Assembly (NCBI GenBank): GCA_001940985.1
Contig: MSHB01000026.1
Coordinates: 2,215-66,214 of the forward strand
Reading direction: 5' to 3'
DNA: 64,000 bases
From: Mollicutes bacterium Phil14
Lineage (GTDB): Bacteria > Bacillota_I > Bacilli_A > ML615J-28 > CAG-698
Part shown: in pieces, positions 3,325 to 37,100 of the stretch
Layout: every line of letters starts with the position of its first letter
Numbering within the stretch: position 1 is the first letter of the stretch
Program-made: the position numbers and the translations under genes
The notes under the pieces: model-generated
What the model was told of the DNA's origin: nothing
The model's input: only the letters and a program-made list of their open reading frames with translations
Databases searched by the model: none

Positions 3325-3344
3325 ATTAAGCGTCTATTAACATT

Positions 3345-3482: not shown

Positions 3483-3601
3483 AGTAAGTCATTAGTAATT
3501 CTAAAGTAATAGGACTAACATCATCAGTTTGACTTAATATATAATCTATATCATTCATAATCCGAGTAATAAGTAAGACAAGTAGTATTAGTATTAATCA
3601 G

Positions 3602-4607: not shown

Positions 4608-4609
4608 TT

Positions 4610-4699
4610 ATGGGAGACTATGTATTAAAACAGAATGTTGCAATGATATTAATATACTTTGTTATATTTGTAATTGCATATGCTAGTACTAATCGTTAA
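4610..4699 (+). CDS. tiny membrane peptide (29 aa)
   Basis: MGDYVLKQNVAMILIYFVIFVIAYASTNR, starting 2 nt after the upstream stop. Confidence 0.3.
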   Translation: MGDYVLKQNVAMILIYFVIFVIAYASTNR

Positions 4700-5313
4700 T
4701 GAATAGTAAATAATCTTTACAGATTATGGGGCCAGAAAGGCCTCAGCCAACGCCACAAATACAGCCCTTCTTCAAAATAATGCGATATAAAGAAATTTAT
4801 ATTGTATTATATATTGAGTGTGAGATGTGAAGATTTTATGATATCACTTCTTTTCCATCAATACGTTATCATTACTGTCACTGGCGATTTACGTATTTAC
4901 TCAATATATAGCTAAATTTATCCATCTGAGGTTGAGAGTTTGCGAAGTACTAGCACATCAAAGATGGATAAATATTTATATGAACAAACATTTATAAGTT
5001 AAACCAAACTTCGCAATTCGGTAAAATGCTATTCCGAAGATTACAGAGTGCAAACTGTAATACAATGCAAAATACAGATAATAGGAATTAACGGCTTAGC
5101 GATTAATTATTTGCACCGTATTATCTGCGTATGTAAAATGAATGAGTGCCAACTCCAAGGATAGGTAGAACTAATAGAACTAAGCACTATTAGAAAGGCT
5201 TCTATCTATTCTTGTAATATTAATGTAGCCAGCTTTATGCTGAGAGTCCAAAGCCTCTATAAATACAGATAGATATTATCATCACGTTTACTAATCATCT
5301 AAATTTAGAAAAT
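4700..5313 (+). ncRNA. structured RNA or long structured leader (unclassified)
   Basis: No ORF; stops in all frames. Nested stems: 4917-4927/4962-4972 (11 bp), and 5160-5170/5200-5210 (11 bp with 2 G:U pairs valid only on the plus strand) enclosing 5171-5177/5187-5193. Also a CAGATAATA/TATTATCTG stem. Confidence 0.4.
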
Positions 5314-5961
5314 ATGGCAAAATTCGAATTATGCAACCCAGAAATTAAAAAAGTTGCAAAAGGAAACAACGCAGGTAAAGAGTATTTAACTGGTACATTA
5401 TTAAACACATTGGCAATATTAGACAGACCAACAACTCATGTAGAGTTCAATGACCGTCTAGTAGAAATGTACAAACCATTTATTTCAGCAGCAAAAGGTG
5501 GAACTGCTGAAACAGACCAAGAATTACCAGAAAGATTACGATACATAACTGCACACAGAGTAAATTGGCAACCACCTAAAGAGTCAATACCATTCAACCG
5601 CATCTATCTTACAGATGTAACAGATGGTACAGGAAAAACTCATAAAGCCGGAGATACAATTTGCGACCGTAACGGTAACCCAAGGTTATACGAGTCAATA
5701 GTAGTATTCTGTAAGTACTTCAGAGACCCTGATTTTCCAGACAAAGTATCCTATTATGCAGGAGATGAGCCAGACCAAAAAGGTCAAGCTTATTTCGGTT
5801 CATTCTGTATCAAAGCTACCTTACCCAAAACAACAGTTAGCGATGAAGATGAAGGAGCTTACAAAGCACCAACATCAACAACTTCAACTAAAGAAGAGAA
5901 ACCAGCTCTTCCAGACGGTTGGAGATACAATGAACAAGGAATACCAGAACCTATCGCTTAA
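5314..5961 (+). CDS. hypothetical protein
   Basis: 215-aa track ORF with visibly higher GC than its neighbours and a Ser/Thr/Glu-rich C-terminus. No motif recognised. Confidence 0.7.
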   Translation: MAKFELCNPEIKKVAKGNNAGKEYLTGTLLNTLAILDRPTTHVEFNDRLVEMYKPFISAAKGGTAETDQELPERLRYITAHRVNWQPPKESIPFNRIYLTDVTDGTGKTHKAGDTICDRNGNPRLYESIVVFCKYFRDPDFPDKVSYYAGDEPDQKGQAYFGSFCIKATLPKTTVSDEDEGAYKAPTSTTSTKEEKPALPDGWRYNEQGIPEPIA

Positions 5962-6033
5962 TTAATAAGTCCTAGCATTAGCTAGGATTTATTATGTATT
6001 AACTCAAATATCAGATAAATAAGACTGAAAATT

Positions 6034-6258
6034 ATGGAAAAAGAAACTACTCAAACAATAACCAACAACAATGAAATTTGTCAAGGATTATTCGATAATT
6101 TGGATAGTCAAATACTATTATTAAAAGAACTAGATGGATTTTTAAAATCAAGAAAACTACAATCCGGTGAAGCAGCAATATGTATAACACATGCGATAAT
6201 GCATACTGCCGAAACTTTAGCTAATTATTATGATGTAACATATCCTAAGAACATCTAA
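6034..6258 (+). CDS. hypothetical protein
   Basis: 74-aa track ORF. Confidence 0.5.
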   Translation: MEKETTQTITNNNEICQGLFDNLDSQILLLKELDGFLKSRKLQSGEAAICITHAIMHTAETLANYYDVTYPKNI

Positions 6259-6260
6259 TC

Positions 6261-6434
6261 ATGAACAACGTACTAGCATGGATACTTGTAATGATTTCTT
6301 TATCATTAGGTATAGTATTCGCATCTCAAATTAACTGGACATATATGCATGGACTAGCTTCATTATGTTTCTGGTTTATATGCGTATCATTACTTCTTTA
6401 TATCAAAAAACATTCAAAAGATGAAGACGAATAA
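6261..6434 (+). CDS. small membrane protein (57 aa)
   Basis: MNNVLAWILVMISLSLGIVFASQINWTYMHGLASLCFWFICVSLLLYIKKHSKDEDE. Overlaps the next start. Confidence 0.45.
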   Translation: MNNVLAWILVMISLSLGIVFASQINWTYMHGLASLCFWFICVSLLLYIKKHSKDEDE

Positions 6435-6618
6435 AGAATTAATACAGAAAATAAGTTATTGGTGTTTATTAGTATTCTTATCATTAGCTGAATCATCAAT
6501 ACTAATAATGATATACAAAGATACTATAGAGTTAAAACCATCTATGGTATTAGCAGATAGTATATTTGGAGCAGTAATAGCGGGATTAACTTACTTCATA
6601 GTAACAAGAGATGAATAA
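6421..6618 (+). CDS. small membrane protein
   Basis: 65-aa track ORF with two hydrophobic segments. Confidence 0.5.
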   Translation: MKTNKELIQKISYWCLLVFLSLAESSILIMIYKDTIELKPSMVLADSIFGAVIAGLTYFIVTRDE

Positions 6619-6781
6619 TAAATATATCAGATTAAAGTTACTTATCACAGCGATAATGACTATAATATTTATTATTATGGCAATAATAATATTACATAAA
6701 GAACCTTTACCAAATATATTATCTATTATTGCAATAATAGTATCTATTCACAATTTAATAATATTTATGATAACTACTTAA
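6611..6781 (+). CDS. small membrane protein (56 aa)
   Basis: MNNKYIRLKLLITAIMTIIFIIMAIIILHKEPLPNILSIIAIIVSIHNLIIFMITT. Overlaps the upstream stop. Confidence 0.45.
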   Translation: MNNKYIRLKLLITAIMTIIFIIMAIIILHKEPLPNILSIIAIIVSIHNLIIFMITT

Positions 6782-6897
6782 ACCATATCAAAATGGCAAG
6801 AACAAAAACAAAAATAAAAGCAATTAAGATTGCAATTTGCAACTGTAACAAGTTGTATTTTTTAAATTTAAAGTAAAGAACTATTAAATTTAACAAT

Positions 6898-7119
6898 ATG
6901 TTAGAAAAATTACCAAAACAATTACATCAGTATTTAAGACTGACTTATTCTCTTTATAAACAAGATTGTTTAACAATAGATACTGTAACCTCGACTATAG
7001 ATGATATAGTTGTTCTTAACTATGATGTTGATAACTATTGTGAAACAACTAGTGTTATACAAAAAGAATTAGAAGAGAACTATAACCGAGCTACTGATTG
7101 GCGAATCATAGAAGAATAG
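6898..7119 (+). CDS. hypothetical protein
   Basis: 73-aa track ORF. It ends at TAG, so the real C-terminus is uncertain. Confidence 0.5.
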   Translation: MLEKLPKQLHQYLRLTYSLYKQDCLTIDTVTSTIDDIVVLNYDVDNYCETTSVIQKELEENYNRATDWRIIEE

Positions 7120-7317
7120 TTATAGGATTTTTGTTAGCTTATTCCTATAACAGTTCATTTACTGTTAATGGTATTCATGGTATCAATGTGTGTTAGAGTT
7201 TTGTTTTGTCTCATTTTACTAATTGTGCAAAAGAACGACTTTCTGAAAGCTAACATAATACAACTGTATGTGAATATCGTTGTATTAAACTTTTAATAAC
7301 TTTAATTCATAATCAAT

Positions 7318-7911
7318 ATGGCATTAAAAAAAGAAAAGAAACAAGAATTAGAAGAAAAACGTATTAGTCTTTCATTAGAAAAAGAACAATACGAAAAGTC
7401 TAGAAATATAGACTTAATACCAATTCTCAAAAAGATAAAACCTGGAACTATCTTATATTCTCCTATAATTGGTAGATGTAAAGTTACAGATATCAATAAT
7501 GATAATATCTTAATAACTAGTATTAATAATACTAGAGTATTTATTGTACTATTTAAAACAGGTCATCTAAAAGAAATAGCTATTAAATGCGGAGGTGAGC
7601 CACTTTTAAGGCCTAATGAAAATCCAGAAGTAACTTGGGAACAATTACTAGTGAAAAACAAAAGAGATTTAAATCTATTAACTCCAGTTATGTTTAAACA
7701 ACATTTTATTAATGAAGTAACTAATTTTGGTTATTATGCTGGACAAAATGCAGTCTATATAAGAATGCCAAATACTAATGAACACTCACTAACTAAACAT
7801 GTCTGTGATATAATAGTTCCTACTTGTAAATTTAACTTTAAAAATATGTCTTTTAATGCAGAAGACAATTATGGAAAAGCAGATCTTGGAATTGGAGAAT
7901 GTATTATGTAA
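7318..7911 (+). CDS. hypothetical protein
   Basis: 197-aa track ORF preceded by the conserved CATAATCAATATG leader. Confidence 0.65.
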   Translation: MALKKEKKQELEEKRISLSLEKEQYEKSRNIDLIPILKKIKPGTILYSPIIGRCKVTDINNDNILITSINNTRVFIVLFKTGHLKEIAIKCGGEPLLRPNENPEVTWEQLLVKNKRDLNLLTPVMFKQHFINEVTNFGYYAGQNAVYIRMPNTNEHSLTKHVCDIIVPTCKFNFKNMSFNAEDNYGKADLGIGECIM

Positions 7912-7931
7912 ATATGGGAGATTATTCTCCC

Positions 7932-8489
7932 ACTCTTCAGAAAATGACAAACATGTGGGGCGTAAGTAATAAAATAGTATTGTATAATGATAAACTAGCA
8001 ATAGTCATTATACTAAATTGCTAGTATTTTATTATGATCGTGCGGACGTAAAAATCATGTATACTAATAAGGATAATGTGACAGTTATCCTGCTACAGTA
8101 TTAAAACTTTGTGAGAGTCAAAATTGAATCCTTATCATAGAACGTAGAAGGAACAACGTCTTATTAATATATTAATACAGCGGTATTAGTATAGAAATAA
8201 GTTTACTTATATCTATTCATATAAGTAGTAAAATACAAATGTAAAATCCATAGAATAGTATGGCGTCATTAGTTAGTATTCCGATTAGAAAAGACTAGTG
8301 TAGAGAAGTATATGTAACATATCACATTAAACACATGTGCTTAATATGAATATCAAGGCATACCCAGTTCTATGCTAGTCTTACTTTTATTTGTATATCG
8401 TCTGCCAGACTTTATATAGGTGGAGACTTCGGTCAACCCAGGAGAGTACTATGAGAGAGAGCATAGTACTCTTTCCTTTTATTTGTTTT
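7932..8489 (+). ncRNA. candidate discrete structured RNA ending at a strong terminator
   Basis: ORF-free with stops in all frames. Hairpins at 7994-8002/8017-8025, and GAC-TTCG-GTC near 8425. Closed by the 8443-8489 terminator. Confidence 0.35.
8443..8489 (+). terminator. rho-independent terminator
   Basis: 11-bp stem AGAGTACTATG/CATAGTACTCT with loop AGAGAGAG, followed by TTCCTTTTATTTGTTTT. Confidence 0.8.
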
Positions 8490-9619: not shown

Positions 9620-9867
9620 AACTAGTAGCATCTTTCTTTTATGGTATACTAACAACACTAGTTATACTAATAACAACTATAAGATACACACATTATAGTT
9701 TTATAGATGATTGGACAGCTTCTCAGTTAAAATACGGAGATTATAGTATATATTGGTATTGGATAGTACTAGTTATATATACTATGTGGTTAGTATTTAC
9801 TATTGAATCTATACTTAGTATCTTTAAACATAATAAAGATGAAAATATGTCGAAAACTATGGAATAG
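9616..9867 (+). CDS. small membrane protein
   Basis: 83-aa track ORF with two hydrophobic helices. Terminal TAG, with TAA 6 codons later. Confidence 0.5.
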   Translation: MKLVASFFYGILTTLVILITTIRYTHYSFIDDWTASQLKYGDYSIYWYWIVLVIYTMWLVFTIESILSIFKHNKDENMSKTME

Positions 9868-11998: not shown

Positions 11999-12298
11999 CT
12001 TATCAGTACCTTGTGTCACGATAAGAAAGAATATATTCTAATCATGCATACGGGGATTTTGCAATTACCTATGGAGCTATTCACAGAATATAAACTTTAA
12101 TACTCAGTATATACTTCGGTGTATACTGAGTAGATAAATAGAAAACGTGCCACTGATCATGTGCCTAAAGATCTAAAGGTATTCCTCAGTGTTAGGAATA
12201 TGCTTCTAACTATAAGTACCTTGTGTCAACATAGTTAGACTAGTCTTATGACGATAAACAGAAATCTATCAAGAGTTATATATGAGTACCTCGTGTCT
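11999..12298 (+). repeat. three copies of AGTACCTYGTGTC, two displayed in hairpin loops
   Basis: Copies at 12005-12018, 12215-12228 and 12285-12298. The first two sit in loops of the stems CTTATC/GATAAG (11999-12025) and CTAACTAT/ATAGTTAG (12206-12238). Confidence 0.6.
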
Positions 12299-12492
12299 AA
12301 AGTTCAATTGAGTCCCTTCAAGGTGAGCACTTGCTTTACATATATAAATCAAAAAACAATGTAGTAATTATAAGAAGAGAGTGTCTAGTACCTATAGTAT
12401 TATTATTTACTGTGATGGTAAATAATAGACTATACTCAACTTATAAATACATATTATAAAGTATAGAGTTCTTGATTGAGCTCTATACTACT

Positions 12493-12651: not shown

Positions 12652-12957
12652 AACGACTGTTAGGTCTATGAATCACTGTTTGGACACGGGTTTGATTCCC
12701 GTCACCTCCACGAATATGTTTCGATTAAGAGAGAGAGTCTACCGTTTAATGCATTTCATACGACTCAGTGAGATTTCTCACTTAAACTGAATAGAAATGC
12801 ATTATTTTAATCGGGGGTGAATGAGTTTGACAGGCAGAATGTGAAGTAGAATAGGTCGCATGCAGATAACTGGCAACACAAGTTATGTAACGGATTATAC
12901 TCGTATTGCAGCGTAATATGAGAATCCAACGGCTAAGCTAATGTCGTAAAAAGCTGG
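12652..12957 (+). ncRNA. ssrA: circularly permuted (two-piece) tmRNA-like gene
   Basis: The upstream piece ends GGAC-ACGGG-TTTGATT-CCCGT-CACCTCC-A (12682-12710). The downstream piece starts GGGGGTGAATGAGTTTGACAGG (12813-). The two strands form a 7-bp acceptor stem with G3:U70 and discriminator A. Tag-like frame at 12872-12916: GNTSYVTDYTRIAA-TAA. Confidence 0.7.
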
Positions 12958-13030
12958 AGTACTATAGTTGTAATTGGTAAAATATAACACTGATAAAGTT
13001 AAGTTACAGGTTCAAATCCTGTTAGTACTA
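12958..13030 (+). tRNA. tRNA-Ile (anticodon GAU)
   Basis: Acceptor AGTACTA/TAGTACT. T arm ACAGG-TTCAAAT-CCTGT. Anticodon loop CTGATAA, with an A:A mismatch closing the stem. Hand fold, 73 nt. Confidence 0.7.
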
Positions 13031-13060
13031 CTATAAAATTAATCAATAATTTAAAACACT

Positions 13061-15014: not shown

Positions 15015-15566
15015 ATGAAAGAAGAAATAATTCAATTAGTAGAGCAAGCTAAAAATGGTGATGAAAGATCTTTCAATAAACTTTATACATATTATAAACA
15101 AACTATATGGTATACTATATATAATATAGTAAAGAATGTAGATGTTACAGACGATCTGTTATCTGTTGTATTTACTAAAGCGTACGAAAGATTATCTTCT
15201 TATATACAACACATTTCATTTGAGATGTGGCTAAAGACTATTGCAATAAATAGTTCTATAGATTATATAAGAAGAAACAAACAAGAACAATTAAATAACT
15301 ATATTGACGATGAAGACTGTAAAATACAACTAGATAGTTGTGATAATAGTCCTGAAGATAAACTAGTAATAACTGAAAAGTTAAAATTAGTTCAGGAAGC
15401 TATGACTACTCTTCAAAAGAAATATAGAAATTTAATTGAACTACGATTAGAAGGTAAATCCTATAAGGATATTGCTGAAGAGCTTGCTCTATCAGAATCT
15501 AGAGTAAAATCAGATTTAAATAAAGCAAGACAACAATTAAAGAAAAAGATTTCAAAAATTTACTAA
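15015..15566 (+). CDS. ECF-type sigma-70 family RNA polymerase sigma factor
   Basis: 183 aa. Region-2-like DDLLSVVFTKAYERL...WLKTIAINSSIDYIRR. Region-4 HTH-like YRNLIELRLEGKSYKDIAEELALSESRVKSDLNKARQQLKK. Confidence 0.8.
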   Translation: MKEEIIQLVEQAKNGDERSFNKLYTYYKQTIWYTIYNIVKNVDVTDDLLSVVFTKAYERLSSYIQHISFEMWLKTIAINSSIDYIRRNKQEQLNNYIDDEDCKIQLDSCDNSPEDKLVITEKLKLVQEAMTTLQKKYRNLIELRLEGKSYKDIAEELALSESRVKSDLNKARQQLKKKISKIY

Positions 15567-16030: not shown

Positions 16031-17698
16031 ATGAGTAAAGCAAAGAACAAAGCTAAGTCTAACTTAGCTCAACGTAACAAAGAAGCATTAGCAAAGGCTA
16101 AAGCTGCAGTAAAAACTACTAAAACCGTAGAGAAAACTGAAACTAAGGAAAAGAAGGACGAAACAGTTAAATCTGAAAAGGTTCTTCCACCATATGATCA
16201 TGCAGTCCTTATAGCTAAGGATCCAGAAAAGTATACTGTCAAGGAAGTAAGAGAATTTGTTGATGACAAAAAGATTCATCAAATTTCATTCTCTTTCGTA
16301 ACCAAAGACGGTAAAACAGAAGGTAATATTACATTCCCGAAATCTTGTCTGAAAGAGGGTGATAGTATTACTATTACTGTACCATTAGCTACAGAGACTA
16401 AAACAGAAGAGAAACCTGCTTCTAAGGCTAAGGTTGATACTAAACCCGAACCTAAGGAAACAAAAGTTGATCCTAATGCTGCTAAGCAACAGAAACAACC
16501 GAAACAAAAGAAAGAAGAGATTCTTGTCCCGGAAGAGGTTAAACCCGAACCTAAGAAAGAAGAGGTTAAATTGCATACTGATAACTTAGTAGCAAAAGTT
16601 CATAACATTCCGAATTTAGGACGAATTGATGAAAATCATCAAATTGAGTTCTTGAATATGTTACGGAGTGATTTAGCTAAAGAAGATCACTCAATGGGTG
16701 AAGAACTGAAAGCTGGGCTTAATGAAGTTTATCAGGTAGGCCGGATGCAGATGGTAATGATCTATGCTGCTCAGTTAGAGAAAGAAGGAAAAGCAGTACT
16801 AGGAGGAGAAACAATTCAGAAAGAATTATTTCCTCAAGTAAAGAAAGCTTATCTTGATTTCTTCGGAGTAACAGTAAAAGCTCTTGAATCAAAGACTGAC
16901 GATTCACAGCTTCAGATTAAATTCGAAGACATTCCTAAGGATGTAAAAGATGCAGCTAAAGCAGATGCTAAAGCTCCAGAAATATTTGATATCCCGGAAG
17001 CAGATCCTAATTTATCCGAAGAACAAAAACTTGAAGTACTTCGGAGTATTATGAAACGTACTAATGCTTCGGAAGGATCTAAACGTTCAGCAGATCGAAG
17101 AGGGTTAAACCTTGTAGATGCTATTGAATGGGCACGGAAAGCTTTCGAGATTAAGTCTGAAGAACCAGCAGCTACTGTAGCATTATTGTGTGAGAAGTTT
17201 GGAAAAGACTCAAGCGCACTGCTTCTGAAAGGATTTACTGGTATGTCTTACTCAGGTTTGCTATCAAACAATACTCCGTTAATTCCTCATGCTATCTTCT
17301 CAATGTCATTGAAAGAAGTAGGTTTTAACGATAGTCAGATAGCTAACGTTGTACGTACTTTCTGTGTAAATGCATTAGAAAATACTAGTAAAGATGAAAA
17401 AGAGTTTACTCAAAAAGTAGCTCCAGTTAATAACCTTCTAAAGTACAGTACTACTGAAGAAATCATTCAGAGTATCTTGGACAAACAAGAGGCAATTCCT
17501 CTAGCTGTTGATGGATTGCCGAAAACTAAGAACAGCAATATAAACGGAGCTAAAATCTATAGCACATATGTAAATATGATTGGCTCAGATTCTCCTGCTA
17601 TTATTAGCGAGAAACTGAAAGAAGTAGCTCAGTATTATACAAAACCGTTAGGTAGATTAGCTAATTATAAAGACGAATCTGCTTATTCAAAATCATAA
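16031..17698 (+). CDS. hypothetical protein with K/E/P-rich N-terminal half
   Basis: 555-aa track ORF preceded by the CATAATCAATATG leader. Antisense track ORFs inside it are judged spurious. Confidence 0.75.
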   Translation: MSKAKNKAKSNLAQRNKEALAKAKAAVKTTKTVEKTETKEKKDETVKSEKVLPPYDHAVLIAKDPEKYTVKEVREFVDDKKIHQISFSFVTKDGKTEGNITFPKSCLKEGDSITITVPLATETKTEEKPASKAKVDTKPEPKETKVDPNAAKQQKQPKQKKEEILVPEEVKPEPKKEEVKLHTDNLVAKVHNIPNLGRIDENHQIEFLNMLRSDLAKEDHSMGEELKAGLNEVYQVGRMQMVMIYAAQLEKEGKAVLGGETIQKELFPQVKKAYLDFFGVTVKALESKTDDSQLQIKFEDIPKDVKDAAKADAKAPEIFDIPEADPNLSEEQKLEVLRSIMKRTNASEGSKRSADRRGLNLVDAIEWARKAFEIKSEEPAATVALLCEKFGKDSSALLLKGFTGMSYSGLLSNNTPLIPHAIFSMSLKEVGFNDSQIANVVRTFCVNALENTSKDEKEFTQKVAPVNNLLKYSTTEEIIQSILDKQEAIPLAVDGLPKTKNSNINGAKIYSTYVNMIGSDSPAIISEKLKEVAQYYTKPLGRLANYKDESAYSKS

Positions 17699-18087: not shown

Positions 18088-18481
18088 TAAGCTAGTTGTA
18101 CAGCACATGTTGCGTACTTCTAATGTCATATTGCATTTAAAAAATAGTAGAGTTGAGCTACAAAAAGCTAACTCTGCTATGCCAATAGATATAGTAGGAG
18201 GACGAACAAATTACGAGAATCAGGCAGGAATCAATCGTAGGATTCTTGAAATACAAATGCTTGAACAAAGCATGATGCATCGTAATGCAAAACTATTTAA
18301 GACGTTAAGTGGCTTTGACAGTTCTATAATGGACCCTATCAGTTTTATATCTTCGTATGATATAAAACAGAAAGTTGTTGATATCGTTAAGAATACTAAA
18401 TATGTTGGTTACTTAGATCTTAATACTGGAAAGATCCAAGTTATCGGAGAAGATAAACCCGACACGCAACTAGAGCAGTAA
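18074..18481 (+). CDS. hypothetical protein
   Basis: Track ORF 18062..18481 trimmed to its first ATG (MKDHDKLVV...). Confidence 0.55.
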   Translation: MKDHDKLVVQHMLRTSNVILHLKNSRVELQKANSAMPIDIVGGRTNYENQAGINRRILEIQMLEQSMMHRNAKLFKTLSGFDSSIMDPISFISSYDIKQKVVDIVKNTKYVGYLDLNTGKIQVIGEDKPDTQLEQ

Positions 18482-20373
18482 AGCGTGTAATAAGAGCTAT
18501 AAACTGTATCGTTAGCAGCGTAACTGCTTCGCCCACGACACTATAATCAAATATAGTTGGGAATGCTGAAAACGTGGTAAGTAAGCATTAATAGCACAGA
18601 ATGTAATGAGGCTTAAGTCATAGCTACAACTATGCTAAGTAAACGATTGCATAATAACTTGTTCGTGTCGAATTTGCTATTTAAGACTGAAGAAACGACG
18701 AGAGAGAGGGAGAGCGTGAGAAACCCTCGGTGAGAACCACTTGGTGACTGAAGACGCAACATAGAAATCAGCAGATCTCTATAGTTAAACATCTCAAGGT
18801 ATCGTTAATACATCCGAATCCTTACAATCAAGTAAAAATCAAAAGGGGATGTTACCTTAAACACGAGCTGCAAGAGTCGGAAAGGCCGACTATAAATAAA
18901 ACATTAATGACTCCAAATCATTAATGCTAAAACTTACAGACATACTAACGTCTTAGGGAAGCTCCAAACTTTCCTTGTGGTAAAAATATCACTAAAATAT
19001 TTATGCTACCATAGTGTTCAGTCCTGGCCTTTATTAGGATAGAAGGATGTATGAAGGTGGTGACAATTATATTATAATACTGTTTAATAATATGATAAAG
19101 TGAGAAGTAAATTACGTGCTTTATAGCTGAGAAGCTATGATCCATATATATTGCCTTGTTTGTATAAAGCAACATATATGATAGATTACCTCGATTAGGT
19201 GCCAAACCTATGCGTAATGTTAGTAATAAGGATATACATTCCAGTATATAGATAAAATACTACTAATCCTAAGTTTATTAAAATCATATTGTGAGATATG
19301 AGTTCTCAGTTGAATGGGATTGTGTAATTTTGAGTAATATATTGTCTAAACTCAGTTTCTACTTATCTGAGTATAAATCCTAGAGTGCTTTGCAACAGGT
19401 CATAAAGTAGATATGGGATGAAGAGCCAGAAAACTCTATTTCGTTAACGTAATATCGATAAGCATAAGGTATAAGTTATAATTAGTGGGAGATAACCCCG
19501 TGACAAAATCGATTTGAGTATTCGAAAAATACTAATATTATAAGATTTCTAGGCCAAGTCAAGTAGATGTACAAGACTATGAGCTAATAGAAAGACATAA
19601 TAAAGAAGCTTATTGTTTAACTTAATAACCAATGAGGAAGTTCAATGGAAGTAGTACGCTACATCACCACCCTCGACTGTACAATATAATTGCTGTAAAC
19701 GAAACTTATGTGCCGCAACACATATTAGTAGGTTCGCTGATACCTTCATTAAGGTTGAATGAGTGGAAATCTCATAAATTATGTGCAGAATAAGAACGAA
19801 GTCGTAGATAACACGCAGCCGTAGAGTAAACTACAGGCTATATGAAAGTGGGTGTTTTGAAACATAAACAGCTTTAAATAAAACCGGTTACACTATAATC
19901 GATAAAAATACATCCTGTCTCGATGTAATATTATATAGTAACATACTACATTAGTAGAAGCTTAAAATAAGCTTATGTTTACTTCGAAGTGTACAATAAC
20001 ACTTAGCAAGCACGTTTTTAGGTATTTCCTGTTAGGCTTGTAAAACAATCAGATAAACCAATTATCTTAAGGGGTATATATCTCATACCGTTTGAGTCCC
20101 CGTTATATGCACATATGATTACATATCCCTAGAATATAACTACGATAATCATTAACAAACAATTTCAAAAGAATTTCAAAACAATTACAAACTTATGTAA
20201 GCAGAAATCTCATATAATATCAAAGTAATGTAGAGGTAAATAAGTATCAAATGACGAGTTTTATCATACAATATCAGGTATTTTCAAAATAGCTACTATA
20301 GGATATCCATTGAATTGGAAGTATTATATATACTAAGAGATCTATCTATATAGTATGCAGGAGTAAAGAGTAT
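18482..20373 (+). ncRNA. 1.9 kb ORF-free block, candidate large structured RNA(s)
   Basis: TAA, TAG and TGA are frequent in all six frames. Visibly less AT-rich than the coding flanks. Many local stems, for example 18875-18891, 18902-18926, 19123-19138 (GAGA loop) and 19143-19180. Strand inferred from G:U pairs. Confidence 0.4.
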
Positions 20374-20400
20374 TTGCTTACTTTAAAAAGAATAATCATT

Positions 20401-20964
20401 ATGGAAACAGTATATCAAAACCAAATTAGTCCTAAATTGGAAGCCCGTTTACGGGAAGTACGGAAAATTATTAGCGACATGGGTAGCATGTTAGGCAAAA
20501 CAATTTGTTATTTGCAAGTAGATAATGTTGATCTGTCTCACAAAGAGAAAGAAATCAACAATAATCACCCACGGCTAGTTGTTCCGTTATTGAAGTTTAT
20601 GGTAAATAGTATTACCATTAGCGAACAAAAGATTTTAACGATTGGAGATGATGTCTATCTCGAATTTAATGGTAAAGAGAACTTACGGGCAAAGATTATA
20701 CAGAATCCTAAATTCTTTGCAGATGCTAGCGATAATGCTATTATCGAAGAAGCAGTAGAACGGGCAATGAATGGAGGTACACCGATTTTCTTTGCTAACC
20801 GGCAGAAATTAACTGCTGAAGCGAATTTCCGGAACAAACAAGAGATGGAGAAAGCAGACCGTCTTGCTAACGAATTCTTACAACAAGCACAGTTGTTGAG
20901 TGATCTTACGAAAGCTCAGGAACATGACTGTGAAGAGTATTACAAACAATTAGGTTTAGTCTAA
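20401..20964 (+). CDS. hypothetical protein
   Basis: Track ORF trimmed to its first ATG (METVYQNQISPK...). Visibly higher GC. Confidence 0.65.
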   Translation: METVYQNQISPKLEARLREVRKIISDMGSMLGKTICYLQVDNVDLSHKEKEINNNHPRLVVPLLKFMVNSITISEQKILTIGDDVYLEFNGKENLRAKIIQNPKFFADASDNAIIEEAVERAMNGGTPIFFANRQKLTAEANFRNKQEMEKADRLANEFLQQAQLLSDLTKAQEHDCEEYYKQLGLV

Positions 20965-21753: not shown

Positions 21754-22248
21754 ATGAAATCAAAAGCATTTATTATAAAACGTAACGAAATATCTCAAGA
21801 ATTAACTAATTATTGGAAGATAATGCATGTTCATAATGTTCTTAATAAGAATTATGAGCGTAAATATAACTTGAAAGAGATATATTCTAATATTAAAACA
21901 TTATCTGAAGAACGTGCTTTAGTAAAACTAAAGTTACAAGCAATTAATCTTGGACTGAAGAAGTTTAGCGACTTACCCGCAGAATGTAATCAGTTTAATA
22001 TATTTCGTCTAGGAGAGCTCAAAGAGCTCAAGAAGCAACTTGGACTAATTAAAACTATTAATCCAGTCCTAAAAGCGAAGAAAGGTAAGAAAGCTTTAAA
22101 TCGTACAGAAGAGTTAACAGCTAACTGGATTAAAGCTCGTATTAAGGAACTAGATTTAGAAATCCTTGAACTAAGTGAGAAGTTGGAGAAATTTAATGAG
22201 GAGACAGATTTTGATGATGAGTGTGCTCCAATGGTTCTTGCTGCATAA
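21754..22248 (+). CDS. hypothetical coiled-coil protein
   Basis: 164-aa track ORF. Confidence 0.6.
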   Translation: MKSKAFIIKRNEISQELTNYWKIMHVHNVLNKNYERKYNLKEIYSNIKTLSEERALVKLKLQAINLGLKKFSDLPAECNQFNIFRLGELKELKKQLGLIKTINPVLKAKKGKKALNRTEELTANWIKARIKELDLEILELSEKLEKFNEETDFDDECAPMVLAA

Positions 22249-23436: not shown

Positions 23437-23510
23437 GATTCTGTAGCTCAATTGGATAGAGCAACGCCCTTCTAAGGCGTCGGTTTTGCGTTCGAGTCGC
23501 AACAGAATCA
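23437..23510 (+). tRNA. tRNA-Arg (anticodon UCU)
   Basis: Acceptor GATTCTG/CAGAATC. D arm GCTC-AATTGGATA-GAGC. Anticodon arm ACGCC-CTTCTAA-GGCGT. T arm TTGCG-TTCGAGT-CGCAA. Confidence 0.85.
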
Positions 23511-23524
23511 CTAATTTATATTTT

Positions 23525-25462
23525 ATGAAGGTTAGAGGAAAAACAGTATATGTATATGATATAGAAGTATTTCAAAATGTATTTCATTGTACAGTAAAGA
23601 ATACTGAAACAAAAGAATATTATAAATTTGAAATATCTAAAAGAAAGAATCAACTGAAAGAACTAGTTGAATTCTTTTATACTATTAAGAATAAATATAC
23701 GTTAGGAAATCTATATACTACAGAAATCCAGTTAGATACAGATAAGATATTTGCTGGATATAATAATCTTCATTATGATAACCCTATTATTAATTATATT
23801 ATAGACTATTATGAAGTAATGAGTAATAAAAATTATTTATCTATTTGTAATAGTATATATAATTTAAGTAAAATAATAACTACATCAAAGGATGATATTT
23901 CTCTTTGGAAGAAGTGGAAATATATGATTAAGTTTGAATCTTTTGATATACTTACTATGTTATACTCACAAAAGTTACGTGTTGGATTAAAAGAAATTCA
24001 AGTAACTATGCAGTACAAAAATGTACTAGAATTTAATCATGATTGGTCATTGCCTTTAGAGGTTGATTTGATTGATGAAATGATTGAGTATAATATTAAT
24101 GATGTAGATTCTACTGAAGAGTTATTAAATAGGTGCAAAGATCAAGTAGATTTAAGAATAGCTATTGAAGACGAATATGGAGTACGAGTACTAAGTAAAG
24201 ATGGAGTAAATATTGGTATGAAGATACTTACTCAAAAATATCTTGAAAAGACAGGTTTAACTTGGTGGGATATAGAAGGACTAAGAAGTCCTGCTGATTT
24301 TATTGATTTAAATAAAGTAATATTACCATATATTGAATATAGAGATCCAATACTTCAAAAAGTTTTATCTGATATGAAACAACAAGTTGTTTCTCCAGGT
24401 AGAAAAGGATATGAAAATAAATTCATATTTAGAGGATTAAGATATTCAGTAGGAGTTGGAGGTATTCACTCTGTAAATAGTCCAGAAATAATTATTCCTA
24501 AAGAAGATGAAATGCTGATAGATATAGATGTAGCATCGTTGTATCCAAGCATGATCATAGAATATAAGTTTTATCCAAAGCATTTGGGACCTGAGTTCTT
24601 AGAAGTATATACTCAGATTAAGAACGAACGAATTGAAGCTAAGCATAAAGGAGATAAAGTTAAGAGTGAAACTCTTAAATTAGCTCTTAATGGACTTAGT
24701 GGTAATCTGCAAAATGAACATAACTTTTGTTATAGTCCATTTACTGTAATGCAGATTAGAATAAACGGTCAGCTATTATTGTTAATGTTAGCTGAATCAT
24801 TATCAGATTTAGGTTGTAGAATAGTACAAGCAAATACAGATGGGTTGTTTGTATTATTAAAGAAAGATATATATAGTAAAGTACAAGAAGTATGTAAGGC
24901 TTGGGAACAAAAGACTAAGCTTACTTTAGAAGAAGAACGTTTTGAAGCTATGTATCAATATGCAATTAATGATTATATTGCAGTAGAAGAAGGATATAGT
25001 AGTAGCAAAGACAGAAAGCTTATAAAGGAGAAAGGAATGTTTATTACTAAAGTATTATTAGGTAAAGGCATGTCTGCAAAGATAATTCCTGAAGCTATTG
25101 AAAGATACTTTGTTGATGGAATTCCTATAAAAGATACTATATATAACTGTAAAGATATTAATAAATTTCTTACTTACCAGAAAGTAGATAAGAAATTTAG
25201 TGTTGAGTATAATAATAATTTAATTCAAAGAATTAATAGATTCTATGCATCTACTAACGGACCTTATTTATTTAAGTGTGAAGTAGATAGTGAAGGAAGA
25301 AGAAGTAATTATACTAATTTATTAGTAGCTTCTGGTGTTACTATACTTAACAAATTTGATGATAAACCTATTGAAGAAAGAAAAATAAATTATCGGTACT
25401 ACATAACTGAGTGCCAAAAGATAATAGAAGAACTCAAACCAAGACAAATGAGCTTATTCTAA
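23525..25462 (+). CDS. family B DNA polymerase
   Basis: Exo motifs YVYDIEV, YNNLHYDNPI and YNINDVDST. Pol motifs DIDVASLYPS, KLALNGLSGNL and QANTDG. The start was moved to ATG 23525 because the track N-terminus overlaps the tRNA. Confidence 0.85.
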   Translation: MKVRGKTVYVYDIEVFQNVFHCTVKNTETKEYYKFEISKRKNQLKELVEFFYTIKNKYTLGNLYTTEIQLDTDKIFAGYNNLHYDNPIINYIIDYYEVMSNKNYLSICNSIYNLSKIITTSKDDISLWKKWKYMIKFESFDILTMLYSQKLRVGLKEIQVTMQYKNVLEFNHDWSLPLEVDLIDEMIEYNINDVDSTEELLNRCKDQVDLRIAIEDEYGVRVLSKDGVNIGMKILTQKYLEKTGLTWWDIEGLRSPADFIDLNKVILPYIEYRDPILQKVLSDMKQQVVSPGRKGYENKFIFRGLRYSVGVGGIHSVNSPEIIIPKEDEMLIDIDVASLYPSMIIEYKFYPKHLGPEFLEVYTQIKNERIEAKHKGDKVKSETLKLALNGLSGNLQNEHNFCYSPFTVMQIRINGQLLLLMLAESLSDLGCRIVQANTDGLFVLLKKDIYSKVQEVCKAWEQKTKLTLEEERFEAMYQYAINDYIAVEEGYSSSKDRKLIKEKGMFITKVLLGKGMSAKIIPEAIERYFVDGIPIKDTIYNCKDINKFLTYQKVDKKFSVEYNNNLIQRINRFYASTNGPYLFKCEVDSEGRRSNYTNLLVASGVTILNKFDDKPIEERKINYRYYITECQKIIEELKPRQMSLF

Positions 25463-29018: not shown

Positions 29019-29091
29019 GGGTGATTAGTTCAGTAGGAAGAACGCTGGTCTCCAAAACCAGATGTCGGGGGTTCGAATCCTTCATCACCTG
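29019..29091 (+). tRNA. tRNA-Trp (anticodon CCA)
   Basis: Acceptor GGGTGAT/ATCACCT. Anticodon arm CTGGT-CTCCAAA-ACCAG. T arm GGGGG-TTCGAAT-CCTTC. Confidence 0.85.
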
Positions 29092-29107
29092 CATATTTTT
29101 ATAGCAT

Positions 29108-34194: not shown

Positions 34195-37100
34195 TTAGAA
34201 CATTAATTGATGTTCAAGATAATTACGTTTTGCTCGAACTGTCTATGGATCCCACATTTCAATTAATCCGTGTCCAGGAGATGCTTTAATGATATTACGT
34301 AACACTTTAGGAAATCCTTTATATGCACCACTCTTAACTGTAGCAAACGGATTACCATCACCAAAGTAGTTAGGAATCCATAGTACTTTTAACATATCTG
34401 ATCCAGTTTCAATAACATTTACTGCGGCAGAAGGAGAGTTAAGCAAAGAAGTTAATTCAAAAGGATTATACATAGTACGGAACTCAAAAGCCGTTCTCAT
34501 AGCTACATATGAAGCAGCTTGCAATGCTAAATTGTCTTTATCATCATCTGCTGCTGGAACTAATATTAAGCTTACTAATAACGATAATGCTACAATATTA
34601 CCTAATTCTAATATCACTTTTCTAACATTATACTTCTCATAATCAGACATACTATCATATGTAGCTATCATCTATTTTATTGCTAAAAATTTCTTTTTAC
34701 CAAATCCGCTTTTAATTACATCAGCCGCTGATTGATATAATCCTCTTTCTACTTCGCCAGTATTATAGTTAAATTGAGTACCTTTAAAACGATCTTCAAG
34801 TCCAACTATCATAAAGTTTCTATGCATTACTACAAACTGAGCATAAGCATTAGCGTGAATCTAAGCTCTATCTGTATCAGTTAACATACCATCTATTTTA
34901 CCTGCTAAGGTTTGAGCTTTGTTAGTAACTGCATTTTTAAGTTGTTCTGTTACTAAGTCTTTATATTCATCTAATACTACTAACTTATCATCTTTAATAT
35001 CATACGCATCGTATAACGTTGTTTTAAGCTCTTTCCAGGCACTTTCTCCAGCTTCCTTATTATCTGCATAATATTGAGATAAAAATTGATTCTTGGACAT
35101 GAATTTACCGTCATGTAACTTATAGTTATGATATACTGCTAGTAATACTTGAGATTTAACAGTAAAGTCACCAGCACTATAACCATTAAACCAGAAATGC
35201 TGATTTATAGCTCTCATTGTAGCAGACTGATCTAATCTATCAAATGTTTCCTCATTAGATCTACTTACTTGGTTAAGCTATAATAACATCATTATCTTAT
35301 TCTTATGATTTACATTACCTATATTAGTAACTACATCAGCATAATTAGACATTAATTCTTCTTTAGCAAATGCTATATCACTCTTGTCATAATATCTACC
35401 TAATATACCTTCTATATCAGTATATCCTTGACCAGTTACAAAGTTAGTCATAATAGCCCAAGGATTGAATGCAAGATTTACTTTAGTAACAAATTGATAT
35501 AAGCTTCCTAATGGTTTACTTATATCTCTTCCTCCTATCGTAGTAACATTTTTCTTCTATCCGTATAGATTCATATTAAGTAAATCCTAAGCTTTCTAGA
35601 ATGCACGTAATGTACCAGCAGCTTTCTACTTCTTACCGTCACGCATTTCTAATTGAGATAGTCTCTCAAGTATCATTTCTAGATCATATTGTACTTCAGA
35701 CATATTTCTAAAGTTTTCAGCCATATGATGATACATAATAACTGAACCAACTACATCAGAAGTAATTTTGGTAGGATCATCTAACATCCTCATATATCTA
35801 GTAGGTATATTCTTAATAGGAGATCCATCAGGTCTAGTAGAGTTACTTACATTATACTAACTATCATCGTCTTTAATAGTAAGATTATCTTTAAGTATAT
35901 ATTTGATATTATCTACAGTAAGACCACCTCTACTAAGTAATGTCATATCTCTAGCAGACATCTAAGGTAATTTATATTTATTAGAGTTTGATAAGAATGA
36001 TATTTTCTCATTACTCTATTCCATATCTTTAATTATGGCATCATATAATTCCTTAGCTGAACCTTTTATTTTATTAAATTCTTTTGAATTATCATAGAAT
36101 TCTTTCTTAGGTTGAATATATTCATCTTCATTAGTATTGAATTCATTATCGGCAAATGTAGAAGCTCCATCTAATTCTCTAAAGAATCTACCTGGTACTA
36201 ATCTAGAGTATTTAGACATATACTCATCTTTAGGTTTTAAATAAGTATATCTAGATACTGGAACCATATAACCACTTTGATTTTCATAATGATTTCTCTG
36301 GAACCAATTATCAAAATCAGTAGGTCCTAGATTCTTATATCTATTATAATCTTCGTAATATTGATCAGTTTTAGCTATTTCAGCAAATTCATTAAATTCT
36401 GTTTTTGGACCTTTTACTCTTAAATTAGCAATTTCTTGTTCAAGATCTCTTAATTCTTTTTGCTGTTTTTCTGATAGATCCATATATTCATTAGTAGTAT
36501 TAGGTAATCTATACATTTTAAGTAATTGTTTACGCTTATCTACTAATTTGTTATATTCTTCACTCTATTCAGCTCTTTCTAATTGAGCCAATCTTTCATA
36601 GAATTCATCTGTAAATTCAACTTGAGTATTATATTTTACCCAGTTCTAGAATTCCTTACTTTGTGCTCCGTATTTAGCTGATACCATAGAAGCAGCTTTA
36701 TTGAACTTAGCCATATTAGCTTTATAACTAAGTCCTTCTCCAGTTTTCTTGTAGAATTCTCTTAATTCCTAAGCAATCTGTAAATCTGTACCATCTTTCT
36801 TAGTACCATCATAGTAATATTCAGATGATAAATTCTCTTTTTCTTTAAGTAAAGCATCTAGATTGTTTCTATCTTTATCTGTCATTAATACTGATAAAAA
36901 TATATCACCTCTAGAATATCTATCTAATATATAATTTATCTCTTTCTATACTTCATCTAGAGCATTAACTGTTACTTCAGATAATTTGTTCTTTAGTTCG
37001 TAATATTCAGGAGTATATCTACGATGTGTATATTTAGCATACCATCTATTCATGCGTTTATTGTACTCCTATTTAGTAGAATAATCTGGGAATACTATAG

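Follow-up and report, generated by a model that had tools for sequence, protein, structure and literature searches.

Conservation and covariation point to an undescribed family of very large, multi-domain structured RNAs in the replication module of delta-group crAss-like phages

Large and intricately folded non-coding RNAs are known from bacteria and their phages. GOLLD (RF01998), of about 0.8 kb, is a very large RNA of phages and prophages with many covarying stems and highly conserved loops, and comes from Lactobacillales or lake-water sequences. ROOL (RF03087), of about 0.6 kb, is a large ornate RNA of gut and rumen bacteria which is often found in phages or prophages. OLE RNA, a conserved structured RNA of about 0.6 kb as well, is chromosomally encoded in extremophilic Firmicutes, membrane-associated, and scaffolds an RNP together with partner proteins dedicated to it. 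Structured RNAs of 120-550 nt can also have a mechanical or priming role, as the phi29 pRNA, which forms the ring of the DNA packaging motor, and the replication primer ColE1 RNA II. Delta-group crAss-like phages, which are studied here, rank with the most abundant human gut viruses. GOLLD is reported to form RNA-only multimeric cages and ROOL homo-oligomeric assemblies (PMC12286853). For crAss-like phages Yutin et al. 2021 described stop-rich, unrecognisable regions, mainly in the Zeta group (PMC7886860), and a UG27 reverse-transcriptase system occurs in some Crassvirales-like phages (PMC9226505).

In the DNA analysed here, a stretch of 64,000 nucleotides referred to as the window, an earlier note had singled out a block at 18482-20373 as free of ORFs, rich in local helices and reminiscent of GOLLD and ROOL. 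The block indeed lacks a usable ORF under any stop-codon reassignment. TAA, TAG and TGA together occur 48-61 times per frame on the plus strand and 33-50 times on the minus strand, the longest stop-free stretches are 58 codons (plus) and 104 codons (minus), and recoding of TAG or TGA leads to frames of 85 and 117 codons at most. No open frame recurs at an equal place across lineages, and the 86-aa minus-strand ORF (18945-19205), which had looked spurious in the note, is not conserved in relatives. The block was also said to be less AT-rich than its neighbours, which is true to a small extent (GC content of 0.330 versus 0.318 and 0.303 in the flanks, and 0.308 in the entire window). Conserved structure begins at about 18443, still within the 3′-terminal part of the upstream ORF and slightly 5′ of the limit set before. 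The element measures about 1.65 kb in the window (~18443-20126), with hairpins and repeats continuing to ~20320.

Within the cr6_1 species cluster the variable sites of the three flanking ORFs show a strong 3-base periodicity (p = 1e-34, 2e-23 and 6e-9); those of the element are distributed flatly by position mod 3 (65/80/70, p = 0.44). Variable sites amount to 12.8% in the element versus 17-20% in the flanking ORFs. The element is non-coding, and purifying selection is stronger on it than on the adjoining genes. In late genes of delta crAss-like phages stop codons are reassigned, but neither a long frame nor a 3-base periodicity was found that would indicate such a gene here. Least probable of the explanations considered is that the block represents a self-splicing intron of group I or II which has degenerated or lacks an ORF, or else a protein gene, split or recoded, with missed exons; coding signal and intron signature are both absent. 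Both group I introns and recoded late genes are found in delta-group crAss-like phages (PMC7886860), and the Intron_gpI model detected a group I intron elsewhere in one relative (L098). In the element, however, neither Intron_gpI nor Intron_gpII and group-II-D1D4 gave a match even at E ≤ 10. No host gene is split and no ORF lies inside. The ORFs on either side are unrelated to one another, and each is complete, with a start and a stop of its own. The position is moreover fixed family-wide, unlike that of a mobile element.

Scanning positions 18300-20500 with all 4227 covariance models of Rfam 15 gave no match at the gathering threshold. With permissive filters (E ≤ 10) only noise appeared (Pistol with 15.9 bits, E = 8.8, and SCARNA7 with 11.5 bits), and the GOLLD and ROOL models of the same library remained without a match at this E-value. 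The impression that the block belongs to no known family is supported by the Rfam scan, and the likeness to GOLLD and ROOL holds in kind but not as membership. The element is about twice as long as GOLLD, with no match in sequence or structure, and is found in gut crAss-like phages within a replication-module operon; ROOL likewise differs in host range and gene context. A location near tRNA genes, as reported for GOLLD and ROOL, does not apply, since the nearest ones are tRNA-Arg at 23437 (3 kb downstream) and tRNA-Ile at 12958 (5.5 kb upstream). There is no homology to OLE, and no sequence or structure similarity to phi29 pRNA or ColE1 RNA II, which can serve as candidate functional analogies; the element is not located beside packaging genes and shows no GC-skew sign of an origin. 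Other orphan structured RNAs from comparative genomics are present in the same phages: a Hatchet and a twister-P1-like match in the window, RAGATH-7 and RAGATH-9 in relatives, and in addition a permuted tmRNA. The RAGATH, Hatchet and twister motifs are single-domain RNAs of 60-210 nt, whereas the element is 8-25 times larger, multi-domain and absent from Rfam. A conserved motif of ~75 nt downstream of the element in relatives has no Rfam family either. Full-text searches of the literature did not find a description of the element. The earlier note's remark on extended non-coding regions in some crAss-like genomes has only a loose match in the regions of Yutin et al. 2021, which do not include the element. 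No reverse transcriptase, as would be expected for an RT-associated ncRNA, was found among the flanking proteins scanned.

Searching with the downstream protein alone gave no relatives, and related loci were gathered by alignments and DNA patterns instead. Altogether 155 loci carry the element. They include 78 of the 79 for which the sigma-factor gene served as anchor, and the remaining locus is truncated; every informative related contig thus has a collinear homologue of 1.6-1.76 kb at the equivalent syntenic place. Measured lengths stay within 1591-1763 nt. The element occurs in four subfamilies of the Suoliviridae (delta-group crAss-like gut phages). Its collinear blocks share 70-85% identity with cr6_1 and cr125_1, compared to 22-43% for the flanking proteins; in a stretch of 14 kb only the element, the sigma-factor gene and orf164 can be aligned to cr6_1 at the DNA level. 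An equivalent gene-free gap exists in cr56_1, cr1_1, cr10_1 and cr118_1, with homology by nhmmer (E 4e-31 to 9e-52) and/or covariance model (50-101 bits). In the Oafivirinae (cr130_1, cr7_1) the syntenic gap is there with weak or partial homology. The public RefSeq records have a hole of 2 kb without annotation at this place; the regions concerned are 45.8-47.9 kb of cr6_1 (NC_055894) and 92.7-94.8 kb of cr125_1 (NC_055900). A genome scan with an AT-richer DNA pattern matched only phage contigs mis-binned into MAGs and no chromosomal copies; with a 19-nt GC-rich pattern chance matches swamped metagenome and genome collections. Conservation among relatives, on which the ncRNA reading had been made to depend, is strong and family-wide.

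An RNAalifold analysis of the whole 1.8-kb alignment could not be interpreted because the clades are misaligned, and averaged pair probabilities, a covariation scan and folding by domain were used in its place. The 124 proposed pairs in 27 helices are paired in 95.0% versus 32-44% in slid controls, and double (compensatory) changes occur in 67 of the 124 pairs versus 10-20 in slid controls. Part of this structure was derived and counted on one alignment, a circularity which the tests on held-out lineages lessen but do not remove: at 53-62% identity these lineages keep 81-86% of the pairs (slid controls 35-46%), and each of them adds 7-12 new compensatory pair types. Nine antiparallel helices covary compared to none in the parallel null. 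The covariance model of the 5′ domain (R1) scores 225 bits in the window as the single match in 64 kb and 50-175 bits in lineages outside its building set, including distant subfamilies. In the R1 alignment pairing holds in 93.4% of the cells, and compensatory changes are seen in 25 of 32 pairs. None of 500 shuffles reaches any of five measures, and further pair types number 63 as opposed to 44.4±2.5 in the shuffles (0/500). Covariation, the second test named beforehand, is abundant. A collinear multi-domain architecture is kept, in which dozens of helices covary and the loops and junctions are invariant. Being non-coding, with covarying helices and invariant unpaired nucleotides, the element is a candidate member of the descriptive class of large ornate structured ncRNAs, in line with the original reading. 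We consider it likely that ~18443-20126, with hairpins and repeats to ~20320, encodes a very large structured ncRNA of several domains, whose family has not been described before and was inherited vertically in the Suoliviridae. The parts of the element and the neighbouring genes are listed in Table 1.

Table 1. Parts of the element and flanking genes, in positions of the window.
Feature	Coordinates	Strand	Basis and details
ECF-type sigma factor gene	15015..15566	+	Pfam Sigma70_r2 and r4; synteny anchor
555-aa orphan protein	16031..17698	+	always precedes the element; not part of the RNA
5′ boundary module, two hairpins	18443..18494	+	read by eye from alignment
Boundary hairpin 1	18444-47 with 18459-62		UCGG/CCGA; loop GAAGAUAAA-like
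Boundary hairpin 2	18463-67 with 18483-87		CACGC/GCGUG
Leader hairpins	18514..18557	+	AGCAG-CGUAA-CUGCU (18514-28); ACUAUA-AUCAAA-UAUAGU (18540-57)
5′ domain	18590..18854	+	RNAalifold consensus and covariance model R1
5′ domain, helices	18601-05/18648-52; 18619-23/18630-34; 18658-66/18695-702 around 18667-71/18683-87; 18706-10/18724-28; 18817-23/18847-53		18706-10/18724-28 with 13-nt invariant loop AGAGCGUGnnnAA
5′ domain, invariant single-stranded blocks			GAUAACUU, ACUGAAGAA, GUGAGAACC, AAGACGC, AGCAG, UAAAC
Three hairpins	18875..18977	+	18875-91; 18902-26; 18955-77
Central domain	19003..19465	+	closed by long-range helix 19003-07/19461-65
Central domain, inner helices	19009-12/19057-61; 19122-28/19133-39; 19143-50/19175-80; 19196-200/19206-10; 19350-55/19367-72; 19422-25/19434-37		
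Central domain, candidate pseudoknot	19359-62 with 19407-10		
Variable linker	19466..19613	+	segment length comparison
3′ domain	19614..19900	+	RNAalifold on 3′ part and per-helix counts
3′ domain, invariant blocks			AUGUUUAA, GGAAGUUCAAUGG, CCACCC, CGCUGA, CAUUA, AGUGGGUG, GAAACAU
3′ domain, hairpins	19707-12/19719-24; 19743-45/19752-54; 19760-63/19771-74; 19853-56/19867-70		loop CCGCAA in the first, UGGAAAU in the third
3′ domain, longer-range helix	19677-84/19780-88		
3′ terminal part	19901..20126	+	window-specific insert and two hairpins; read by eye
Three 11-nt direct repeats, AAACAAUUUCAAA-type	20157..20191	+	spacer before next gene; spacing 11 and 11
Small hairpin UCCA-UUGAAU-UGGA	20306..20319	+	~80 nt upstream of downstream gene; read by eye
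187-aa orphan protein	20401..20964	+	immediately downstream of the element
orf164	21754-22248		~1.4 kb downstream of the element; DNA alignable to cr6_1

At the 5′ boundary the TAA stop of the upstream ORF (18479-81) falls into the loop of boundary hairpin 2, and a conserved AUAAGAGCUAUAAAC comes after this hairpin. Across lineages the stems of both hairpins are exchanged while the loops stay constant (TCAGA/TCTGA, TCAGT/ACTGA and CTGC/GCAG for hairpin 1; TCGCA/TGCGA, ACCGT/ACGGT and ACCGC/GCGGT for hairpin 2), and outside these hairpins the upstream ORF is not alignable between the covarying lineages. The first leader hairpin exists in some lineages only; the second covaries (CTCCTA/TAGGAG, CTCAT/ATGAG, TCTAA/TTAGA) below a conserved AUCAAA-type loop. 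All six helices listed in the earlier note were found at their positions. AGTCGG/CCGACT (18875-18891) and CATTAATGA/TCATTAATG (18902-18926) covary in relatives and form a clade-specific insertion, and AGGGAAG/CTTTCCT (18955-18977) is kept in relatives with an internal mismatch. The hairpins at 18902-18926 and 18955-18977 share a conserved CUCCAAA loop on covarying stems (CTCGC/GCGAG, CTAAAG/CTTTAG, CGTAGT/ACTACG). ATAGCT-GAGA-AGCTAT (19123-19138) is conserved with G:U variation only, CATATAT.../...ATATATG (19143-19180) covaries in relatives, and AAGCTT-AAAAT-AAGCTT (~19958-19975) is specific to the window.

The closing helix of the central domain exists in four complementary versions (ATGCT/AGCAT, ATGTC/GACAT, ATATT/AATAT, ATATC/GATAT), and of the helices counted in this domain numbers 9 and 12 are paired in 100% and number 18 has compensatory changes in 4 of 6 pairs. 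The linker segment is 246 nt long in the window compared to 322-402 nt in the 17 other representatives; the window is devoid of a sub-domain of ~100-150 nt (block GACACGAAGCAGA...AAUCUGUGUAUUGC) which nearly all other aligned lineages carry. For the 3′ part RNAalifold found 18 pairs, 13 of them compensatory, including an 8-bp stem below the CGCAAC loop; the 8-bp helix of the 3′ domain shows 4 double changes, and its helices 26 and 27 are included in the per-helix pairing counts. In the 3′ terminal part the hairpin GGGG...CUCA-UACCGUU-UGAG...CCCC (20071-20101) covaries in its inner stem (CTCA/TGAG versus CTCC/GGAG), as does AUAUG-AUUA-CAUAU (20113-26; CTCT/AGAG, CTTT/AAAG). In the cr6_1 group a U run follows the stem corresponding to this 3′ terminal hairpin.

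Plain helix counts do not separate the strands (562 versus 569 helices, 39 versus 37 of them covarying), and the MFE of 18590-19470 is significant on both strands when compared to dinucleotide shuffles (z-scores of -3.0 on the plus and -4.6 on the minus strand). By a strand-symmetric criterion, local covarying helices contain 42 G:U and 12 A:C combinations, as opposed to 48 and 119 in distant, mostly spurious helices, and in the six most stringent helices the ratio is 17 to 1. A loose helix set, in which spurious long-range helices dominate, gives more A:C than G:U, so that local or stringent helices alone are informative here. The large excess of G:U over A:C in well-supported helices points to a plus-strand RNA, and all flanking genes are co-directional with it. 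The scan for promoters and intrinsic terminators, which did not cover Bacteroidota-type and phage promoters, recognised none and performed no better than on shuffles.

The same counts bear on the idea that the element acts as DNA, either as a replication origin, possibly with a ColE1 RNA II-type RNA primer, or as a packaging site. Its place among replication-module genes upstream of the DNA polymerase, the short direct repeats at the 3′ edge, the plentiful inverted repeats and the fact that both strands fold better than shuffles would fit such a function. Tolerance of G:U together with avoidance of A:C in the covarying helices, however, means that the constraint acts at the RNA level, and covarying stems with invariant loops are not expected for protein-binding DNA repeats. 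The GC skew keeps its sign through the element, its changes being at ~4 kb and ~34 kb. Among the lineages there is no conserved iteron array and no conserved AT-rich unwinding block, and the sole short repeats, the three 11-nt copies, are clade-specific and confined to the 3′ edge. We regard a DNA-level function as highly improbable.

It is a different question whether the structured RNA is one molecule. A helix linking the 5′ and 3′ ends was looked for and not found, and because of this a single 1.65-kb molecule cannot be distinguished from several adjoining RNAs. A speculative possibility, rather less likely than not, is one RNA of ~1.65 kb that forms a compact multi-domain particle or multimer with a new biochemical or architectural function which the delta-group crAss-like phages need for replication; this function could be a ribozyme or RNP activity unrelated to known classes. 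A cluster of independent smaller structured RNAs and cis elements (a 3′-UTR element, two to four ncRNAs and a 5′-leader) appears unlikely in comparison. It would agree with the missing closing helix, with supported long-range pairing that closes the ~460-nt central domain only, with the independent gain and loss of sub-domains (one missing in the window, some hairpins clade-specific) and with the many small ncRNAs elsewhere in these phages. Against a cluster, the order of the blocks is constant and the length stays at 1.6-1.76 kb despite proteins at 22-30% identity, internal promoter- or terminator-like sites were not found, and there is no lineage in which the domains are split apart by genes. 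Even less probable is a cis-acting operon leader or spacer for antitermination, RNA stability or translational control with no function in trans. The element is co-directional with its neighbours inside an operon-like gene string, and conserved hairpins adjoin the upstream stop codon and the downstream start; but no leader known from bacteria or phages comes near it in size or sequence constraint, its invariant loops number dozens along 1.6 kb, and the genes supposedly controlled are less conserved than the element itself.

For the large RNA the following course can be proposed. The element would be co-transcribed with the early/middle replication-module operon (sigma factor ... DNA polymerase), and the pair of conserved hairpins that straddles the upstream stop codon may be where the RNA is parted from the preceding mRNA. 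Several autonomous domains would then fold, namely the 5′ domain, the central domain with its long-range closing helix, and the 3′ domain, and the invariant loops AGAGCGUG, CUCCAAA, CGCAAC, UGGAAAU and GUUCAAU might make tertiary, RNA-RNA or protein contacts. By analogy, the role would most likely be that of a trans-acting architectural RNA, either as an RNA-only assembly of the GOLLD/ROOL type or as a phage RNP scaffold, and it would be exerted in the replication phase of infection. One possible RNP partner is the 555-aa orphan protein, for which OLE and its partner proteins provide a model of the putative pairing. This protein has homologues in the same phages only and no Pfam, PHROG or PDB match, and its AlphaFold model (mean pLDDT 67) matches in fold only the proteins of cr114_1 and cr56_1. 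The 187-aa protein shares 22-30% identity with its cr6_1 and cr125_1 orthologues and matches no family. For the neighbours Pfam, PHROGs, NCBIfam, PDB sequence search and AlphaFold with Foldseek (PDB, BFVD) were uninformative with regard to function.

The better conservation of the element than of most surrounding proteins, at one position in at least four subfamilies, implies an important unannotated function. As one molecule, the RNA would roughly double the record length of ornate non-ribosomal RNAs in bacteria and phages and would invite cryo-EM work in the manner of GOLLD, ROOL and OLE; folded into a single particle, it would exceed in size every non-ribosomal structured RNA so far known from phages or bacteria. 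For crAss-like phage biology the element offers a family marker and a non-coding gene that may be essential, and several orphan proteins may have a partner in it. ORF-free gaps in phage metagenome assemblies also merit analysis at the RNA level.

Tandem repeats at the end of the block had been noticed before and are present in three copies. They may represent a promoter or operator for the downstream genes, and the AAUUUCA motif of this 3′ spacer recurs in the closest relatives. In the small hairpin at 20306-20319 the UUGAAU loop is constant, and the stem shows covariation in many lineages (TCTA/TAGA, GTGA/TCAC, GTCA/TGAC, GTTA/TAAC).

The window covers a portion of a crAss-like phage genome, and its closest public relatives are cr6_1 (NC_055894; Suoliviridae, Bearivirinae) and cr125_1 (NC_055900; Uncouvirinae), which resemble it only in patches of about 75% identity. 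Plus-strand genes occupy about 5-34 kb of the window, and the element studied here lies within this block between two orphan genes. The earlier note had described positions 18482-20373 as free of usable ORFs and rich in local helices, and both statements hold. Each plus-strand frame contains 48-61 stops and each minus-strand frame 33-50, the longest stop-free runs being 58 and 104 codons, respectively. Delta-group crAss-like phages reassign TAG or TGA in late genes (PMC7886860); here, as had been claimed, such recoding rescues no ORF, giving at most 85 or 117 codons. All listed hairpins were found where they had been placed, the tandem repeats consist of an 11-nt unit present three times, and the block is indeed less AT-rich than its flanks, although the difference is small (GC 0.330 versus 0.303-0.318).

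The alternative of an intron or a hidden gene, which the earlier note had itself raised, is effectively excluded. No open frame recurs at one alignment position across lineages, and group I and II intron models give no match at E <= 10. For the cr6_1 species-level cluster (29-49 distinct sequences), variable sites were counted by codon position. In three flanking ORFs they concentrate at third positions (80/45/225, 12/5/79 and 30/13/64; p = 1e-34, 2e-23 and 6e-9), while in the element they are evenly distributed (65/80/70, p = 0.44) and less dense (12.8% versus 17-20%). Purifying selection is thus acting directly on the nucleotide sequence.

In cr6_1 and cr125_1 the sigma-factor gene is followed by a small ORF, an ORF of about 460-570 aa, one or two small ORFs, the gap, and two ORFs of about 190 aa. 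The unannotated gaps (2.08 and 1.85 kb) occupy the syntenic place of the element, and BLAST and MAFFT align them with it over their entire length in collinear blocks of 70-85% identity, whereas the orthologous flanking proteins share only 22-31%. DNA-level alignment to cr6_1 over 14 kb is limited to the element, the sigma-factor gene and one further ORF, and the five ORFs adjoining the element have zero coverage. The element is thus better conserved than its neighbours. DNA-pattern and protein-anchored scans of IMG/VR retrieved 155 element-bearing loci. Where loci were anchored on the sigma-factor gene only, 78 of 79 carry the element and the remaining contig stops before the expected position. 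Among 18 representatives from about ten lineages, the core varies only between 1591 and 1763 nt. In cellular genome assemblies it occurs solely on phage contigs mis-binned into MAGs.

Six more genomes have a syntenic, ORF-poor annotation hole of 1.9-2.5 kb: cr56_1 (Loutivirinae), cr1_1 and cr10_1 (Boorivirinae), cr118_1 (Uncouvirinae), and cr130_1 and cr7_1 (Oafivirinae). Homology was detected by nhmmer in cr56_1, cr1_1 and cr10_1 (E 4e-31 to 9e-52). With a covariance model built on the 5' domain, these score 52, 93 and 101 bits, respectively, and cr118_1 is added (50 bits, E ~1e-9); the two Oafivirinae gaps give only weak or partial matches. The element is inherited vertically in Suoliviridae, and a mobile element was rejected because the position is fixed across the family. 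The cr7_1 gap contains an annotated 160-aa minus-strand 'hypothetical protein' (NC_055895 25398-25880; 11388-11870 of our locus L502), which is probably a spurious gene call.

Compared with dinucleotide shuffles, the region 18590-19470 has a more favourable fold on either strand (z = -3.0 plus, -4.6 minus). An alignment of 18 sequences (A3) was scanned for column runs with a complementarity of 90% or more, which gave nine antiparallel helices of at least 5 bp with at least three compensatory pairs, against none in a parallel-register null. Combined with helices from averaged single-sequence pair probabilities, these yield a structure of 124 pairs in 27 helices. On A3 95.0% of cells are paired, compared with 32-44% when partners are slid by one to three columns; 67 of the 124 pairs are changed on both sides (10-20 in slid controls), and the covariation score is 0.388 (0.05-0.09 slid). 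On four of five measures none of 500 shuffles reaches the observed value. Because the structure was partly chosen on A3, lineages never used in its derivation were tested: in six of these, added to the alignment with MAFFT and 53-62% identical, 81-86% of the pairs are retained, compared with 35-46% slid, and each contributes 7-12 new compensatory pair types. A fresh RNAalifold run including three held-out lineages recovered identical 5' helices. A covariance-model alignment of the 5' domain (22 sequences) has 93.4% paired cells and compensatory changes in 25 of its 32 pairs, but, being fitted to the model, it leans towards the structure; by the conservative count of further pair types, 63 were found versus 44.4+-2.5 in shuffles, none of 500 being as high. 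The conservation and covariation that the earlier note had proposed to look for are therefore both present.

The plus strand carries all neighbouring genes. Counting helices does not by itself tell the two strands apart. When helices are selected by a strand-symmetric rule, the ten local covarying ones contain 42 G:U versus 12 A:C cells, the six most stringent helices 17 versus 1, and distant, mostly spurious helices 48 versus 119. The excess of G:U in the local and stringent helices favours a plus-sense RNA and speaks against an element that works purely as DNA.

Features of the element and of its surroundings (window coordinates)
Feature	Position	Strand	Remarks
ECF-type sigma factor gene	15015-15566	+	in plus-strand gene block
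555-aa orphan protein	16031-17698	+	always upstream of element; Lys/Glu-rich disordered region ~residues 117-199; confident helical C-terminal half
Two covarying hairpins	18443-18494	+	constant loops; within last codons of upstream ORF, its stop codon in second loop
Leader hairpins	18514-18557	+	
5' domain	18590-18854	+	six supported helices; long invariant single-stranded blocks
Three hairpins	18875-18977	+	CUCCAAA loop in two
Central domain	19003-19465	+	closing long-range helix in four complementary versions; several covarying hairpins; candidate pseudoknot
Variable linker	19466-19613	+	lacks ~100-150-nt sub-domain of nearly all other aligned lineages
3' domain	19614-19900	+	hairpins under invariant loops CGCAAC, UGGAAAU
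Terminal hairpins	19901-20126	+	
Spacer, 11-nt repeats	20157-20191	+	
Spacer, small covarying hairpin	20306-20319	+	UCCA-UUGAAU-UGGA
tRNA-Arg(UCU)	23437-23511	+	overlaps mechanically called TTG start of DNA polymerase ORF
DNA polymerase gene	23486-25462	+	in plus-strand gene block
tRNA-Trp(CCA)	29019-29092	+	

The element is non-coding, strongly constrained, multi-domain and structured on the plus strand. The combination of covarying stems and invariant loops characterises RNAs that make tertiary or intermolecular contacts. No 5'-3' closing helix for the whole element was found, which leaves room for a cluster of several smaller RNAs, a reading we consider unlikely. In the cr6_1 group a direct repeat of about 25 nt (CUAGCAUAGCAUUCGAUUUUCAGAU), different from the 11-nt units of the window, lies on both sides of the terminal hairpin (~5550-5580 and ~5660-5690 of relative locus L001). 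A motif of some 75 nt (GAACGGCUGACUCAUCUGUCUCAUGAGUAAAGUCCUACGGGGAAUGCCGAG...CGUUCUAGUA) is conserved about 100 nt downstream of the element in L001 (~5730-5810) and three further relatives (L002, L024, L008); the window lacks it at the aligned position, and Rfam offers no match for it at E <= 10.

The earlier note had matched no known family, and likewise Rfam 15 gives no match at gathering scores or E <= 10, including GOLLD, ROOL, group I/II introns, RNase P, tmRNA and rRNA. Full-text literature searches and the relevant crAss-like genomics papers yielded no published description, and RefSeq records are blank in this region. The element is a new RNA family. It is filed under the loosely defined 'large ornate structured ncRNAs of phages and bacteria' but stands apart from these in host, context and size, being about twice as large as GOLLD.

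Most likely it would be co-transcribed with the replication-module operon, be set free or marked off at its boundary hairpins and act in trans as an architectural RNA. OLE RNA is an RNP scaffold, and by analogy the element may serve as one. Alternatively it may form an RNA-only assembly as GOLLD and ROOL do (PMC12286853). Less likely rivals to this trans-acting architectural RNA are a giant cis-acting leader and an origin or primer element; against an origin stands that GC skew turns at ~4 kb and ~34 kb and not at the element.

The 555-aa protein is a candidate partner of the RNA because it is confined to phages carrying the element. Its structure model (mean pLDDT 67) matches only crAss-like proteins in BFVD and no PDB fold. 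The other neighbouring proteins have no relatives in Pfam, PHROG, NCBIfam or PDB, and the neighbourhood gives no functional clue. The real DNA polymerase start is probably downstream of 23486, because tRNA-Arg overlaps the called one.

Orphan structured RNAs are unusually abundant in these phages. The window contains a full-length Hatchet self-cleaving ribozyme (7933-8060, plus; 95.3 bits, gathering score 51) and a sub-threshold type-P1 twister match (5217-5276, plus; 54.7 bits against a gathering score of 67.2, E = 1.6e-10), situated at the 3' edge of a large stretch without ORFs. A permuted tmRNA (12652-12916, plus; 55.1 bits; ARAGORN tag peptide GNTSYVTDYTRIAA*) is directly followed by tRNA-Ile (12958-13031, plus). 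In cr10_1, cr130_1, cr7_1 and L024 a tmRNA has the equivalent place, about 1-1.5 kb upstream of the sigma-factor gene. L024 combines RAGATH-7, RAGATH-9, Hatchet and permuted tmRNA within about 5 kb (12210-12410, 7991-8154, 9633-9766 and 7717-7964; locus minus strand), and a group I intron occupies 12392-12564 of the relative locus L098.

Two more long ORF-free stretches lie at 2842-5262 (2.4 kb) and 5959-7305 (1.3 kb). The former, patchily similar to cr6_1 (10% coverage), is a better candidate for an origin or promoter region than the element because it lies between divergent gene blocks at a GC-skew sign change. The minus-strand half (~35500-62300) has many stretches of 0.5-1.5 kb without a long standard-code frame (e.g. 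36565-38025, 38314-39344, 61283-62320), perhaps because late genes here contain introns or reassigned stop codons, as has been reported in delta-group crAss-like phages (PMC7886860).
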